Sequence record: MT478991.1
Length of the DNA stretch: 64,000 nt
From: Escherichia phage vB_EcoM_011D4
Direction: 5' to 3' (one strand)
A program made the position numbers and the translations under genes. Every line of letters starts with the position of its first letter. Within the stretch, counting starts at the first letter, position 1. The notes beneath the pieces are model-generated. The model searched no databases. It saw only the letters and a program-made list of their open reading frames with translations, and was not told where the DNA came from. Shown in pieces: positions 14,918 to 53,290 of this stretch.

Positions 14918-15003
14918 TACTGATTCCTCAAATGAAAATATTTATTAACAATTGTCGCTTTGCGACGTGCCGGAGGCACTGACTATTTTTTAACCGAAAC
15001 AAA

Positions 15004-15050
15004 TTTTCTATATTCTAAAGATCTTTCTTCGTTTTGGTTATATTTTAACC
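15004..15050. repeat. 45-nt conserved intergenic repeat, copy A
   Basis: ttctaaagatctttcttcgttttggt core identical to copy B near 49.8 kb; contains a 10-nt palindrome aaagatcttt. Confidence 0.6.
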
Positions 15051-15106
15051 AATAACTATATTTTTATACAGTAATAAATAAAACGGGTACTATACGAGGA
15101 CTTCTT

Positions 15107-26011: not shown

Positions 26012-26040
26012 TTGACAGTCTTGTCTGGTAAAGGTATAAT
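26012..26040 (+). promoter_or_regulatory. consensus sigma70 promoter (TTGACA-17-TATAAT)
   Basis: exact TTGACA at 26012-26017, 17-nt spacer, exact TATAAT at 26035-26040; about 30 nt upstream of the ORF at 26070. Confidence 0.7.
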
Positions 26041-35057: not shown

Positions 35058-35798
35058 ATGTTTAACAACACTCTTTTTGCTCGCCTTGAATCGCAAAAGG
35101 ATTATGAGAATACACGACAAACAGAGATTCTTAATCCTTATGTGAACTTTCACAAATATACAAATACTCAGACGTTAGCCGACGTTATGGTCGCCGAAGC
35201 TATTCAGATGCGAGGTGTAGAATTATATTACATCCCTCGTGAATTTGTCAAACCAGATATGATCTTTGGTGAGGATGTTCAAAGCAAATTTACTAAAGCA
35301 TGGAAATTTGCGGCTTATATTAACTCATTTGATGGGTATGAAGGAGCGGGTAATTTCTTCTCTAGTTTCGGGTATCAAGCTAATGATGAACTAACTTTTA
35401 CGGTTAACCCCAACCTATTCAAGCATCAAGTAGATGATCAAGAGCCAAAATCAGGTGACTTAATTTATATTCCAATGAGTAATGATCTCTTTGAAATTAA
35501 TTACGTCGAGCCATATCAGCCGTTTTTTCAGGCTGGCAAAAATGCCATGCGTAAAATTATTGCAGAGAAATTCGTGTATAGCGGTGAGGAATTGCGACCA
35601 GAATTACAACGCAATGAGGGAATTAATGTTGATGAGTTTGCGGATCTGGATCTTGCACCGATCACTAATCTGGACGGGTTAACAGATATCAACTTAGATC
35701 AGTACAAAGAAGATAAGCAATTCAGAAGCGAAGGACAAGATTTTATTGATCCGTTTGATCCTATTAATGGCACTGGTTCACCTTTTGCTAATTTTTGA
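35058..35798 (+). CDS. 14: neck protein gp14
   Basis: 246 aa; position and size match T4 gp14. Confidence 0.8.
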
Positions 35799-47445: not shown

Positions 47446-47598
47446 ATGAGTAAGAAAGAAAACAGCTATGTTATGACTCGTAAGGAATACAACGAATTGA
47501 TGTTAGCATTAGCTTATGCAATTATTCGTTCTGATCATGCAATTAATCTGGTAAACAAAGTTAACCGTAGCGTTGATAATGTTTCTAGGAAGAAGTAA
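47446..47598 (+). CDS. hypothetical small protein (50 aa, below ORF-track cutoff)
   Basis: AAGGAGG 6 nt upstream of ATG; followed by a hairpin terminator; occupies the T4 segD position. Confidence 0.35.
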   Translation: MSKKENSYVMTRKEYNELMLALAYAIIRSDHAINLVNKVNRSVDNVSRKK

Positions 47599-47682: not shown

Positions 47683-48924
47683 ATGACTCATATTTTTACT
47701 GAACTGTTGCGGGAATCTACTTCCTCAGTAGCTAACCAGACAGCGCGACCGCAACTATTATCATTAACTCGCGCGGTAAACAACCTGATTTTCTCTGATC
47801 TGGTAGCAATCCAGCCAACGGATCAACCAGTATCTGCATTGTACGGCCTACGTTATCTTAATCGTGATGGTCAGATGACTTTCCGAACTGCTACAACCTA
47901 CGGTGGCGCGGCTGGTGATCGCACAGAGATTGAAGAGTTTTCAAAAGAAAAATCTTATGACGAAGGCGCACTGTTCAAATCAGACAATGTTGTATACGAA
48001 GTTGTGACCGCTGGTACAGTCGGTGCAGATGCCGAAACTCCAGAAGCTGCAATCTTTAAAGGCGTAATGACAAACAAAATTCGTTTCTATAGCGATTGTG
48101 CATCGGTAGAATACTTTGAAGATAAAAACACCGAAATTTCGTCTACCTCTATGCAGTTTGATAAATGGCAGGTTAATGTAGGTTCTCGTAAACTGAAAAC
48201 CTCATTCACGACCGAATTAATGCAGGATCTTGAGGCAAGCCAAATCAACTCTGAAAACTCTGTAATTGATCTTCTGGCTACTGTTGCTTCCGAAGAGATC
48301 AACAAAGATATTATTCAGAAGTTGATCACTGTATCATCTCGCTATAAAATTAAAGGGATCACCCCTGATGGCGTACTTTCTCTCGTTAGCGTTCAGGATG
48401 CACCAACACAAGCGCGTGAACTTTACCGCTATGCTTGCGAAATGAGCAATCAAATGTTGCGGACTTCCTCCTTTGCTGGTACATACGTTTTGGCGTCTTC
48501 TCGCGTGGTTGGCCTCCTGCAATCTACCGGTTGGATGGAAGAAACCGACAATGCTCTAAGTGAAGGTCGTCTGCGTTGCGGTCTGGAAGTGTACGCAGAC
48601 ACGACGACACCTTTCGATTATATGCTCGTTGGTTGTAAGCACATGATCGGTGATATGGAGAGTGTAGGTTCTCTGTTCTACTCCCCATATACAGAAGCCG
48701 ACGGCGCTGGCGCGTATAAGAGCGTAATTGACCCTAATAGCTTCCAGCATCATGTAGCTATTATGAATCGTTATTCACTCTCTGTCAACCCATACACATC
48801 AAAAGTTGATCAGGAAGAACACCAGGTCATCAAGGGTGACGATTGGGGTAAAATGGCTGGACGTTCAGAAATGTCCTACATTTTAGGAATCGAACTGCCA
48901 CCGCTTGAGATTGACAACGCTTAA
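47683..48924 (+). CDS. 24: capsid vertex protein gp24
   Basis: ORF track starts at 47635; the Met of MTHIFTELLRESTSS at 47683 is the likelier start because T4 gp24 begins similarly (ELLRES) and the late promoter lies inside the longer form. Confidence 0.85.
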   Translation: MTHIFTELLRESTSSVANQTARPQLLSLTRAVNNLIFSDLVAIQPTDQPVSALYGLRYLNRDGQMTFRTATTYGGAAGDRTEIEEFSKEKSYDEGALFKSDNVVYEVVTAGTVGADAETPEAAIFKGVMTNKIRFYSDCASVEYFEDKNTEISSTSMQFDKWQVNVGSRKLKTSFTTELMQDLEASQINSENSVIDLLATVASEEINKDIIQKLITVSSRYKIKGITPDGVLSLVSVQDAPTQARELYRYACEMSNQMLRTSSFAGTYVLASSRVVGLLQSTGWMEETDNALSEGRLRCGLEVYADTTTPFDYMLVGCKHMIGDMESVGSLFYSPYTEADGAGAYKSVIDPNSFQHHVAIMNRYSLSVNPYTSKVDQEEHQVIKGDDWGKMAGRSEMSYILGIELPPLEIDNA

Positions 48925-49512
48925 CTAAATATCTAACCAAGACAAGTCAGATCCGCCCAAGATTTTTTCGACGGCGGATCTATTTTCTTGATGATATAAG
49001 TTAAAACATGGTATCCCATGTCTACGGGCAACATAAACAGCAATTCGAGTTCCTCCAGAAACAATCCCATTAACTTCTTTCGCCCAAAATAACACACAAT
49101 CTACAGGATCATCAAGTGTCTCACCTAAGACTTGAGCAACATTTCTAGAAAACAGATTTTGCATGTATAACGGTATAGAACGAGGATTATCATAAACGTG
49201 TTCTAATTCATCCATCGCCAGATTTTTTTGTTCTAAGGTTTGCCATGCAATCACATCATGACCGTTATGCTTGTGGTCATAAAACTTCCAATTTGGAATG
49301 AAAATTTTTCTATAATCTGGATCGTAATACTTCATGAAAGCATTGTCCATACCGTAAGCCCCTCCAGAATGCGCTACAACGCGATTTTCTGACAATACCC
49401 TCCCAATGGTACTAGCCATTATCAAAATGTCGCTAGGCGCTTTTCTAGAGCCGATTAAAGCACATCTACGAAGTGGTTTTACTCCAAATAGATCTTGTAA
49501 CTGGTCAAACAT
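48925..49512 (-). CDS. DprA/SLOG-like Rossmann-fold protein (putative)
   Basis: 195 aa; IGSRKAPSD ... VVAHSGGAYGMDNAF resembles the DprA/Smf GSR ... SG.A.G.D motif; GGAGG upstream. Confidence 0.45.
   Translation of the reverse strand: MFDQLQDLFGVKPLRRCALIGSRKAPSDILIMASTIGRVLSENRVVAHSGGAYGMDNAFMKYYDPDYRKIFIPNWKFYDHKHNGHDVIAWQTLEQKNLAMDELEHVYDNPRSIPLYMQNLFSRNVAQVLGETLDDPVDCVLFWAKEVNGIVSGGTRIAVYVARRHGIPCFNLYHQENRSAVEKILGGSDLSWLDI
48949..48986 (+). terminator. hairpin terminator after gene 24 (overlaps the 3' end of the convergent minus-strand gene)
   Basis: agatccgcc-15 nt loop-ggcggatct followed by a T-rich stretch. Confidence 0.4.
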
Positions 49513-49648
49513 AATATTTCCTCCATAGAAAGCAATATCATACTACAAGTTAATAACAAATACAAGTATCCGCGTAGCGGAAGCGAGCACAGCGAGCAAT
49601 AAAAACACTTCCAGTAATTGATTAATAAATGTTCGAAACAAATTTTTA

Positions 49649-49690
49649 TTATTCTATAAGATAAGTCTTCGTTTTGATCATAATTTAATC
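49649..49690. repeat. conserved intergenic repeat, copy C (degenerate)
   Basis: ttctataagataagtcttcgttttgatcataatttaatc aligns to copies A and B. Confidence 0.5.
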
Positions 49691-49792
49691 ATACATGTAA
49701 AAACTACACAAAAGGATATCGCTTCGCGAACTCCTACGGAGTATAACATTTGTGTTACAATATGTAGTGATTAATAATTAACCAAAGATACA

Positions 49793-49839
49793 TTTTCTAT
49801 GTTCTAAAGATCTTTCTTCGTTTTGGTCATAATTTAATC
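49793..49839. repeat. conserved intergenic repeat, copy B
   Basis: ttttctatgttctaaagatctttcttcgttttggtcataatttaatc; about 41 of 45 positions identical to copy A. Confidence 0.6.
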
Positions 49840-49890
49840 AAACAGTATTAATATTGTGCACATGTAAACTAAAATTATGTTAATAACAGA

Positions 49891-49920
49891 TACAAAAAAG
49901 CCGCCCAGAAGGACGGCTAA
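49891..49920 (-). terminator. rho-independent terminator
   Basis: hairpin agccg-cccagaagga-cggct with a minus-strand U-run. Confidence 0.5.
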
Positions 49921-49926
49921 TGTTAA

Positions 49927-50364
49927 TTATTTGTTGATAACGATCTGATTTCGGCGAATGGTAACATTACTCTTAGAGATGATCAGATCATCCGGCACTA
50001 CGTTAGTTTTGTATGGCTGGAAGCGAACAAGCATCTGATTGCGTTTAGACCCTTCCTTAATCTTGATTTCCATCTGGATATTGTTGCCTACGTGAGCAAC
50101 CGCAATTTCACCTTTATTCTCATAGACCCACTTGCTGGTAACGTCTCCAGCAAAAGCCTTAATAACTTGCAATGCTTCGTCATATGCGGTAGAGCTGTGA
50201 ACTTTCAGAAGACCAGCCGTAGCAAGACGGGAGCAGGTGATCGCCGGAGATTGCCAAACATCAACATTAATTTGCTCAATCAGAGTAACACCGCCCTGAT
50301 CAACTGCTTTGAATGCTTCGAACATTGCCTTTTTCATTGCTACGTGGTTTTTACGGAATTTCAT
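49927..50364 (-). CDS. hypothetical protein
   Basis: 145 aa ORF, no recognisable motif. Confidence 0.45.
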   Translation of the reverse strand: MKFRKNHVAMKKAMFEAFKAVDQGGVTLIEQINVDVWQSPAITCSRLATAGLLKVHSSTAYDEALQVIKAFAGDVTSKWVYENKGEIAVAHVGNNIQMEIKIKEGSKRNQMLVRFQPYKTNVVPDDLIISKSNVTIRRNQIVINK

Positions 50365-50410
50365 AATTATTCACCTCTATTGATTAGTTATTCAGAATAT
50401 TAATTACAAA

Positions 50411-50686
50411 TCAGGACATTGCCCGTTTGAATGCGTCCATTATAACAGTGTTATTTGGCTTGTCAACACGTTTTTGAACTTTATTTTTAAATTTTTTGTT
50501 GATGTGGTGTTTACGATAAACAACCTTTTCACGGCTGGCGTAAGCCTCGCGTGCATCTTTTACCATCAACCATGCCTTAGCCGCATCTTGTCCGCTGATC
50601 CCGCCAATCTTCTTAGCAATATCAACAAAATTAAGACCGTGGTCTTCGCGTAGCATGTAAACCATTAACGCTGTTTTCTTGTCCAT
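50411..50686 (-). CDS. hypothetical small basic protein (possible DNA-binding)
   Basis: ORF track 50411..50794; trimmed to the internal Met (MDKKTAL) whose ATG overlaps the stop of the upstream ORF by 1 nt; weak HTH-like segment and Lys-rich C-terminus. Confidence 0.35.
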   Translation of the reverse strand: MDKKTALMVYMLREDHGLNFVDIAKKIGGISGQDAAKAWLMVKDAREAYASREKVVYRKHHINKKFKNKVQKRVDKPNNTVIMDAFKRAMS

Positions 50687-50883
50687 CACTTCGCCCCATT
50701 GACGATTAACAGGATAGTGATCAGTACCGGAAACTGGATCATGACAGTACCAATAAACCGGATAAACGCATTTTCTGACTTCCACACATGACATGCGACT
50801 AGCTGATAGACCATTGTTGCAACCAAAGCCAGAAAATACATCTCGATAGGTGCTTCTTTGATCAATCGTACAATCTCATTCAT
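50686..50883 (-). CDS. small membrane protein
   Basis: 65 aa, two hydrophobic helices; GAGGTGA upstream. Confidence 0.4.
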   Translation of the reverse strand: MNEIVRLIKEAPIEMYFLALVATMVYQLVACHVWKSENAFIRFIGTVMIQFPVLITILLIVNGAK

Positions 50884-51010
50884 ACTTCACCTCATACATT
50901 CATAAACACAACAACGAATAGGACAGTAACAGTTATTAAAGCCATTTTCAACCCCATATTCATAATATTTTCTTCGCCTCACTATGACAGTAGCATGTCG
51001 ATGCGTGCCA

Positions 51011-51037
51011 TTATAGGCATCTAAATCGCTCTGTCAA
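51011..51037 (-). promoter_or_regulatory. sigma70-type early promoter (TTGACA-15-TATAAT)
   Basis: minus strand exact TTGACA and TATAAT with a short 15-nt spacer, upstream of the 50883 gene block. Confidence 0.4.
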
Positions 51038-51041
51038 GCAC

Positions 51042-51073
51042 TAAAAACAAAAAAGCCACCCCGAAGGATGGCT
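51042..51073 (-). terminator. rho-independent terminator after hoc
   Basis: hairpin agccaccccgaaggatggct with a minus-strand U-run. Confidence 0.5.
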
Positions 51074-51084
51074 GATAGATTTCA

Positions 51085-52564: not shown

Positions 52565-53290
52565 TTACTTGAGTGTGTGGAATTGGCTATGTTTAGTCTC
52601 TCGCACCTTGACAGACCCATCGCGTTTGATATAATAGATCAGTGACTTGAGGGTGTCGTGTACATACGCGTGCGGGAAACGCTCTGGATACTTCTTCCAA
52701 TCTGGAGTATTAACGATCCAGTCGAAAATCCACCACGGGCAGGAGTAGTAACCACGACCGCCACCGATCAAGCAAATGGTCGGACGGAAGCCAGTAAGAT
52801 CGCAAAATGAATCAGTGTCATGTGCTGGGGAACGATGCTCTGCTTCGTTAGAGAAAATGTTGGCTACCGGAGATTCCACTTTAACTTCCGGTGCTTCTTC
52901 AACATCTGACTTAACTTCTTCGACCACTGGTTCAACTGCTGGAGATTCTTCTTTTGTTTCTTCAATGACGATCTCAGGTTCTTTCATTGCTTCAACCAGA
53001 GACGGATCAACTTCGTCGAATACCACTTTATCATCTGCGGTGTCTGCTGCCAGAATAAGATCGTTAATACTGGTTCCTTCTGCCGGAGTTTCTTCTTCCA
53101 TTTCGGAAGCCAGTTTAGTTAATTCGGTTTCTACGAACTCGATCATGTTCTCTAGGGATAAAGTCTTTTTGACCTTAATATCAAATTGTTTTGCGTAGTC
53201 AGCTAATTCTGTTTTAGCTGTTTTCTGTGCTTCTTTGTCGTCGGACGCCGCAATAGCGCGGAGTTCTTCGAAATATTCTTTATCAAACAT
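52565..53290 (-). CDS. Inh-like capsid-associated protein (putative; T4 inh position)
   Basis: 241 aa; acidic middle; C-terminus carries WWIFDWIV and PHAYVHD motifs resembling Hoc. Confidence 0.4.
   Translation of the reverse strand: MFDKEYFEELRAIAASDDKEAQKTAKTELADYAKQFDIKVKKTLSLENMIEFVETELTKLASEMEEETPAEGTSINDLILAADTADDKVVFDEVDPSLVEAMKEPEIVIEETKEESPAVEPVVEEVKSDVEEAPEVKVESPVANIFSNEAEHRSPAHDTDSFCDLTGFRPTICLIGGGRGYYSCPWWIFDWIVNTPDWKKYPERFPHAYVHDTLKSLIYYIKRDGSVKVRETKHSQFHTLK

Follow-up and report, generated by a model that had tools for sequence, protein, structure and literature searches.

A stand-alone DprA-like protein of Krischvirus coliphages and the link of its family to RNA ligase 2 genes in T4-type phages

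This analysis concerns a 64,000-nucleotide (nt) stretch of DNA of Escherichia phage vB_EcoM_011D4 (record MT478991.1), hereafter the window, and within it the segment between gene 24 and hoc, in which four minus-strand open reading frames (ORFs) code for proteins of 65, 91, 145 and 195 amino acids (aa) (Table 1). The phage belongs to Krischvirus, the coliphage group of the RB49/JSE/Phi1 type. We found that the 195-aa protein has, as modeled, a DprA-type Rossmann fold of the SLOG superfamily, and that in 23 T4-type loci outside Krischvirus a gene for such a protein lies directly downstream of rnlB, the gene for RNA ligase 2, on the same strand. The original prediction had described the four genes as an accessory module that replaced rnlB. 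The 23 loci, which are mostly at the gene 24 site, contradict this view, and they correct the picture of the locus to one in which Krischvirus appears to have lost rnlB and kept the partner gene, with no swap of modules. As to function, we tentatively favor the view that the 195-aa protein binds single-stranded nucleic acid without catalysis and aids nucleic-acid repair or counter-defense of the phage.

Fold and conserved motifs of the 195-aa protein

From its sequence alone, the 195-aa protein had been proposed to carry a GSR ... SGGAYGMD motif and to be a Rossmann protein of the DprA/SLOG type, and both proposals were borne out. The two motif elements lie at residues 21-23 and 49-56, and an AlphaFold2 model built with seven homologues (predicted local distance difference test score [pLDDT], 83.7; predicted template modeling score, 0.84) gave a Rossmann/SLOG fold that could be superposed on solved DprA structures. 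Profile searches pointed the same way, since the Pfam and PDB sequence matches of the protein and its family were to DprA only. In PHROGs, the protein matched family 768 with an E value of 2e-60, residues 15-187 aligning with profile positions 4-181 of 191. The match to the TIGR00732 dprA profile reached 14.4 bits, against a cutoff of 191, and when 100 diverse family members were compared with the Pfam DprA profile PF02481, the best E value was 8e-7 and none scored much better than the 195-aa protein itself. In Foldseek comparisons, the family matched the viral YspA/DUF2493 SLOG proteins with an E value of about 1e-3, versus 1e-12 within the family.

For the DprA domain that binds single-stranded DNA (ssDNA), Wang et al. 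(2014; PMC3950713) described two signatures, G-S/T/A-R and F/L/Y-x-x-R-N/D, which form a pocket accepting one ssDNA base, and contrasted them with the LOG motif PGGxGTxxE. Both signatures were recovered in the 195-aa protein, the first as G21-S22-R23 and the second as L120-F-S-R123-N124. Among the 100 members, the former was in register in 96, with its G and R invariant, and the latter in 89, with R invariant and N present in 96%; R23, D56, R123, G153, G154 and T155 were invariant over the whole set. The LOG catalytic motif occurred in none of the 100 (0/100), the corresponding segment reading S-G-G-T-R-I-A with an Ala at the Glu position in 97%, and neither the 195-aa protein nor the 100 members matched the Pfam family of LOG and PpnN phosphoribohydrolases (PF03641). 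The order of the motifs is the same in Escherichia coli Smf, through to the C-terminal SGS/GGT...G..hF segment.

Linkage to rnlB and distribution of the family

The rnlB-linked loci include those of Muldoonvirus PS2, Karamvirus EnA02, Pseudotevenvirus CfP1 and Erwinia phage Cronus. Their usual order is hoc, 24.3, (24.2), rnlB, the DprA-like gene and then the convergent gene 24, and the overlap of rnlB with the DprA-like gene amounts to 1 nt in EnA02 and 11 nt in CfP1. In 8 of the 23 loci the two genes stand together at a site other than the one by gene 24 and hoc; they thus move as a pair. The nearest relatives of the 195-aa protein outside Krischvirus (43-46% identity) are rnlB-linked as well. 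A literature search found no publication linking rnlB with DprA or SLOG proteins, and such a link was not found in the accessible part of the survey of viral SLOG domains by Iyer, Burroughs, Anand, de Souza and Aravind (2022; PMC9503650).

As had been predicted, rnlB is absent from this region of Krischvirus: none was detected in the window or in bases 1-150,000 of JSE, and tblastn with six RnlB sequences revealed no remnant in the spacer upstream of the 195-aa gene (best E value, 0.44). The statement that a DprA-type gene is not part of the T4 gene set held at the syntenic locus, where 30 bp separate the end of T4 rnlB from gene 24 and no DprA-like gene is present. These sequence comparisons are most simply read as follows: the fuller form is the arrangement that combines both genes, as in Karamvirus, Muldoonvirus and other T4-type phages; T4 lost the DprA-like gene; and Krischvirus lost rnlB and 24.2, so that its DprA-like gene was left as an orphan and the position of rnlB and 24.2 is now held by the spacer and the 145-aa ORFan. 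In the record of phage Skers (MW748999.1), one of the features under the match is annotated as "putative RNA ligase," yet rnlB was not detected in Krischvirus; the label may derive from relatives whose DprA-like gene adjoins rnlB.

The family itself is large. Relatives of the 195-aa protein were found by tblastn in 1,428 phage records, including T4-type, Pakpunavirus, T5-like, N4-like, Chaseviridae, Phapecoctavirus and jumbo phages, and a profile search returned 4,315 clusters at 50% identity. A typical member is a stand-alone protein of about 180 aa, and the Krischvirus protein likewise stands alone, unfused. Among the best 150 family representatives, NADAR was the fusion partner in five, DUF4326 in one and RecJ in one, and a further DUF4326 fusion was seen in a metagenomic locus (L057). 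On a metagenomic contig (L124:2348-4440), genes for Macro, DUF4326 and a NADAR::DprA-like fusion follow one another, a putative compact cluster for ADP-ribose (ADPr) processing.

The neighborhoods of family genes outside the T4-type phages were diverse. Across 80 loci that represent a different clade of the family, no neighbor dominated, BLAST clusters of their 1,131 ORFs each being confined to at most 7 loci, and within 4 kb of the DprA-like gene we counted NADAR genes four times, macro genes four times and NAMPT genes five times. One Pakpunavirus carries genes for phosphoribosyl pyrophosphate (PRPP) synthase, NAMPT, macro and the DprA-like protein in this order, a T5-like vibriophage has the DprA-like gene between two NAD-ligase genes, and in phage flopper it adjoins a gene for a single-stranded DNA-binding protein. 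JSE encodes a NADAR gene, 30.3 (Pfam Phage_30_3, 132 bits), and a macro gene, Tk.4, at distances of about 28 and about 50 kb from its DprA-like gene.

Bacterial copies are sometimes found beside NADAR or DUF4326 genes. In dozens of Novosphingobium and Sphingobium genomes, a family member lies beside DUF1173, DUF1419-like and pentapeptide-repeat genes, a setting that we take to resemble the accessory region of a conjugative element. DNA enters cells single-stranded by way of such elements. Naive ORF calling was noisy at the high G+C content of the bacterial loci, the gene being called in 27 of 75, and only DUF1173, pentapeptide, NADAR and DUF4326 neighbors were retained from them.

Possible functions of the 195-aa protein

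We lean toward single-stranded nucleic acid binding without catalysis because the residues by which DprA binds ssDNA are kept, the LOG motif is gone, and the recurrent partners (RNA ligase 2, RecJ and NADAR) act on nucleic-acid strands. With regard to the last of these, phage NADAR (T4 gp30.3/AdfN) strips from DNA the ADPr that DarT1 attaches to ssDNA (PMC11825919). The minimal DprA-type SLOG domain, retaining both motifs of the base-accepting ssDNA pocket and devoid of the LOG catalytic motif, would grip single-stranded nucleic acid; it would not be an enzyme itself and would serve as a helper to repair or damage-reversal enzymes. In other T4-type phages the DprA-like gene follows that of RNA ligase 2 and is translationally coupled to it, and in other elements the domain occurs fused to NADAR DNA de-ADP-ribosylases, DUF4326 or RecJ. 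We infer all three components, namely, nucleic-acid binding, lack of catalysis and biological role, from such motifs and contexts.

Several observations weigh against this assignment. The match of the 195-aa protein to Pfam DprA amounts to 22.3 bits, below the gathering threshold of 29.6, and covers profile positions 45-90 of 212, being confined to the N-terminal GSR...SGGAxGxD motif region. One Rossmann domain fills all 195 residues, leaving neither the SAM nor the winged-helix domain of DprA, and the overall isoelectric point (pI) of the protein is 6.4. LOG, ThsA and YpsA use the same SLOG pocket to bind free nucleotides, and the contexts with NADAR, Macro, NAMPT and PRPP synthase suit a small-molecule ligand equally well. 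As for rnlB, it was present at none of the 80 loci of the different clade, and T4 and Krischvirus each have one of the two genes without the other, so that these are not obligate partners.

The strongest competitor starts from those contexts: the 195-aa protein might bind, sequester or cleave a soluble nucleotide derived from NAD, such as ADPr, an isomer of cyclic ADPr or ADPr phosphate, and thereby blunt host immunity based on NAD or ADPr, including Thoeris-type signaling and toxic ADPr metabolites. We regard this as possible, if rather unlikely. It is what the survey mentioned above (PMC9503650) predicts for viral SLOG domains, which are described there as processing or sensing ADPr derivatives, as being fused to Macro, NADAR and DUF4326, and as belonging mostly to a YpsA-like clade that acts on soluble ADPr signals. 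The same fusions and clusters were recovered in the mini-DprA family, Macro, NADAR or NAMPT genes made up 13 instances within 4 kb in the 80 diverse loci, the Pakpunavirus gene order fits the idea, and JSE has both NADAR and macro genes. However, DarG-type NADAR and macro proteins act on ADP-ribosylated ssDNA (PMC11825919), and the fusions therefore fit DNA targeting equally. The near-invariant Ala at the position matching the LOG motif and the conservation of the very residues that DprA employs for ssDNA (PMC3950713) also argue against a nucleotide-processing enzyme, the linkage to RNA ligase 2 and the RecJ fusion indicate nucleic acids, and by Foldseek the family is nearest to DprA and distinct from the viral YspA/DUF2493 SLOGs, while the survey assigns most viral SLOGs to the YpsA-like clade.

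Two further explanations build on the resemblance to bacterial DprA. In one, which we consider improbable, the protein is a true recombination mediator that loads UvsX or host RecA on ssDNA and supplements UvsY. RefSeq and PHROGs name it "DprA-like DNA recombination-mediator protein," the ssDNA motifs are retained, phage DprA has been proposed to be an additional single-strand binding protein (PMC7824862), uvsW and uvsY are a few kilobases distant, and the sphingomonad neighborhoods, with the conjugative-element likeness that we presume for them, could be read in this sense. Against it, Krischvirus already has uvsX, uvsY and gene 32, the SAM and C-terminal winged-helix domains of bacterial DprA are missing, and no conserved linkage to recombination genes appeared in 80 plus 31 phage loci, the recurrent partners being rnlB, NADAR, DUF4326 and macro instead. 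The other, which strikes us as very improbable, makes the protein an orphan antitoxin that mimics ShosA or PsyrA and silences the phosphoribosyltransferase (PRTase) toxins of the ShosTA and PsyrTA abortive-infection systems. ShosA neutralizes ShosT without binding it, by way of ssDNA binding, dimerization and RecA (PMC12961424), a mode in principle open to imitation by a free-standing DprA domain, and the phage orphan antitoxin AdfN, which copies DarG1, offers a precedent (PMC11825919). PADLOC did return weak matches to PsyrA (E value, 4e-5) and ShosA (E value, 4e-4), but these cover residues 15-61, that is, the motif of about 45 residues, GSR...SGGAxGxD, common to all DprA-like proteins, and their scores of 21 and 18 bits are no better than the 22 bits for Pfam DprA. 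Our search found no publication on a phage anti-ShosTA DprA homologue, and mimicry of an antitoxin leaves the coupling to rnlB and the NADAR fusions unexplained.

The non-catalytic binder thus remains the reading we prefer, and it can be extended. In a broader form, which is speculative and in our opinion unlikely, the mini-DprA family would be a widespread factor of counter-defense or repair, aimed at damage in single-stranded nucleic acid, and would guide RNA ligase 2, RecJ or the NADAR/macro de-ADP-ribosylases to substrates such as ADP-ribosylated or nicked strands, in Krischvirus in trans with gp30.3. It is possible that the Krischvirus protein acts in trans with the NADAR and macro genes of its genome. 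Although the family is known and annotated, it is uncharacterized and the finding itself is of modest interest; the matter gains weight from the number of carriers, with thousands of metagenomic clusters besides the phage records, and from a database name implying a role in recombination, to which the contexts, neighbors active in NAD salvage among them, point less than to nucleic-acid damage reversal or counter-defense. If the preferred reading is true, it bears on the purpose of phage Rnl2 and on the helpers of phage NADAR enzymes on DNA, and the directing role, if true, would give phage Rnl2 a testable pathway. The coupling to rnlB offers a concrete lead to what this very large family of phage proteins does.

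Organization of the gene 24-hoc segment and comparison with known systems

The features of the segment are summarized in Table 1. All four ORFs are real genes, as each matched a PHROG family of its own (E values, 3e-28 to 7e-102) and the ratios of nonsynonymous to synonymous substitution rates (dN/dS) against a divergent metagenomic relative, L011, were 0.12, 0.04, 0.14 and 0.31 for the 195-, 145-, 91- and 65-aa genes, respectively. A 2.5-kb region was aligned over its full length with 58 phage records at 98.0-99.4% identity, all of them RB49/JSE/Phi1-type Krischvirus coliphages; JSE and Phi1 have the same four genes (ORF164-167 in Phi1), and RefSeq already names the 91-aa product "gp24.3" along with the DprA-like protein. 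The segment is hence ordinary in itself, belonging to what is conserved and already annotated in RB49-like genomes. These relatives conserve the group of genes without a known function being attached to it.

Table 1. Features of the segment between gene 24 and hoc in the window
Feature	Position	Strand	Description
195-aa gene, predicted DprA-type SLOG Rossmann protein (PHROG 768)	48925-49512	minus	ORF
Putative small stem-loop (49581-49569), then weak promoter-like TTGTAT-17-TATGAT (49565-49537)	49537..49581	minus	upstream of 195-aa gene
Spacer between 145-aa and 195-aa genes	49513..49926	minus	414 bp; G+C 0.30 vs 0.41 for the window
Predicted intrinsic terminator after 145-aa gene	49899..49918	minus	8-bp stem, 6 GC pairs, then T-run
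145-aa gene, basic ORFan	49927-50364	minus	ORF; phrog_15652, E 6.9e-102
P2, second consensus sigma70 promoter (predicted)	50439..50466	minus	TTGACA-16-TATAAT, 12/12, TG before
91-aa gene, basic T4 gp24.3 homologue by sequence (DUF2774)	50411-50686	minus	ORF; PF11242
65-aa gene, hydrophobic ORFan	50686-50883	minus	ORF; phrog_16558, E 2.9e-45
P1, consensus sigma70 (early-type) promoter (predicted), upstream of 65-aa gene	51010..51037	minus	TTGACA-16-TATAAT, 12/12
Predicted terminator stem-loop after hoc	51054..51073	minus	8-bp stem, 5 GC pairs, then T-run; upstream half of PeSL-type cassette

The interval would be a conserved Krischvirus accessory segment made of two separate units. The first (about 51073 to 49899) would be an early cassette of the promoter-early stem-loop (PeSL) type, running from the hoc stem-loop through the consensus sigma70 promoter, the 65-aa ORFan, the coupled gp24.3 homologue, P2 and the 145-aa ORFan to a second copy of the stem-loop, and the second would consist of the 195-aa gene behind its spacer. 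The original prediction had set four minus-strand genes behind one sigma70-type promoter; the genes, their coordinates and the promoter, with its 12/12 match, stood up to analysis, whereas the 195-aa gene proved to lie past a terminator and the spacer. A single operon of all four genes is ruled out by this terminator, the spacer and the second promoter, P2, which falls inside the 24.3-like gene, at its 3' end, and precedes the 145-aa gene. Perfect TTGACA-N16-18-TATAAT sites numbered 5 in the window, versus 0.10 expected from shuffles. The other three are at 26012-26040 (+), 35222-35251 (-) and 52608-52635 (+), the last inside inh on the opposite strand and directed at uvsW (start, 53347).

Both stem-loops are independently marked as terminators in the annotation of phage G2494 (ARNOLD; -16.2 kcal/mol after hoc and -17.0 kcal/mol after the 145-aa gene). 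They form direct repeats (51047-51076 and 49892-49921) that are 87% identical over 30 nt, are 1155 bp apart and bracket the 65-91-145 unit. Because the stem-loop after the 145-aa gene in L011 bears the sequence that follows hoc in the window, the sequences hint at an exchange between the copies, which would fit recombination of the PeSL type. The 195-aa gene is convergent on gene 24, which ends at 48924, and its own putative promoter is possibly the TTGTAT-17-TATGAT site, which fell below the threshold of the promoter scan, its hexamers being read from the sequence. L011, an 86%-identical relative, keeps the layout with TTGTTT-17-TATGAT and changes in both stem arms, from TCCGC/GCGGA to TCGGC/GCCGA.

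The spacer was searched for the T4 late promoter TATAAATA and for a MotA-box-like sequence, neither of which is present, and against Rfam it gave no match, the only hit being a sub-threshold SorY (21 bits versus 111). It contains two copies, 149 nt apart, of a repeat of about 64 nt with the core TGATTAAATTATGAYCAAAACGAAGAAAGATCTTTAGAA...AAAAT, of which the window has exactly three copies (49781-49844, 49633-49695 and 14993-15055, all minus); the third lies in a divergent intergenic region upstream of gene 3. JSE has all three at syntenic positions. No Rfam match and no obvious promoter were found in the repeat. At the spacer site, L011 has a different tandem duplication of about 150 nt.

Turning to the three small proteins, the 65-aa product, described beforehand as a membrane protein, is indeed hydrophobic (grand average of hydropathicity, 1.03), and two segments have Kyte-Doolittle 19-residue means above 1.6; it is probably a two-helix membrane protein. 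Its tblastn matches were confined to the 58 Krischvirus records (78-100% identity). Since its stop codon and the start of the 91-aa gene have one base in common (TGATG), the translational coupling suggested earlier is plausible. The basic character of the 91-aa protein, also stated beforehand, was borne out (pI 10.1). The module is not foreign to T4 as a whole, since this protein is by sequence the homologue of T4 gp24.3: it scored 100.3 bits against PF11242 (cutoff, 29.2) and matched gp24.3 in BLASTP with an E value of 2e-12, in agreement with its syntenic position by hoc. The 145-aa protein was likewise confined to the 58 records, with 99% identity or more in 53, and its dN/dS indicates strong constraint. 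Its gene occupies roughly the 24.2/rnlB position of other T4-type phages, and BLASTP revealed no similarity to RnlB (E value, 6.2) or T4 24.2 (E value, 15). Neither the 65-aa nor the 145-aa protein had a meaningful family match in Pfam, NCBIfam or PADLOC, the hints for the latter being at noise level (L19; E value, 0.006), and a single-sequence AlphaFold2 model of the 145-aa protein was unusable (pLDDT, 42.9) and was set aside. An ORF of 31 codons with a GTG start (50887-50982, minus) is situated in the leader of about 120 nt between P1 and the 65-aa gene and is unannotated in JSE and Phi1. Small ORFs are also found between genes 23 and 24, including one at 47446-47598 (+) in the window; JSE annotates two there (52 and 50 aa), and in T4 this interval is occupied by the homing endonuclease gene segD.

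Compared with bacterial DprA/Smf (PF02481; H. pylori 4LJK/4LJR and R. palustris 3MAJ), the 195-aa protein is a single domain without SAM and winged-helix/DML1 domains, its residues 60-115 are family-specific, and the carriers of the family are phages and other mobile elements. It is a member of PHROG 768, and its orthologues in KFS-EC, JSE and Phi1 are already so named; the designation as a recombination mediator is a homology-transferred annotation. Unlike ShosTA and PsyrTA, the Krischvirus locus has no adjoining PRTase toxin gene, the neighbors of the 195-aa gene being gene 24 and the non-coding spacer, and the protein is about 100 to 200 residues shorter than the PADLOC profiles of ShosA and PsyrA (303-398 positions) and no closer to ShosA than to ordinary DprA. 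With the viral SLOGs of the NAD/ADPr network (PMC9503650) it shares the superfamily, and other members of its family have the same NADAR/Macro/DUF4326 fusions and neighbors; it differs from them in its family's resemblance to DprA, in sequence as in structure, in the absence of the LOG motif and in the coupling to RNA ligase 2 in T4-type phages.

At the level of the locus, the flanking genes, their orientation and the 24.3 homologue are the same as in the T4 region 24 / rnlB-24.2-24.3-hoc, while the window differs by its two ORFans (65 and 145 aa) and its DprA-like gene and by the lack of rnlB and 24.2. PeSL cassettes have been described in RB49 and phi1, and hoc has been named as PeSL associated (Arbiol et al. 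2010; PMC2839356). Mini-circles have been shown for PeSL192 and PeSL210. The downstream stem-loop of the window departs from this type in having no consensus promoter after it. The hoc-side stem-loop, by comparison, is directly followed by P1 upstream of the 65-aa ORFan, beside hoc and in an RB49-type phage, and this combination agrees with the definition of a PeSL regulatory cassette, with activity predicted from sequence; near-identical stem-loops, moreover, flank the 65-91-145 cassette as direct repeats, as in the PeSL type.

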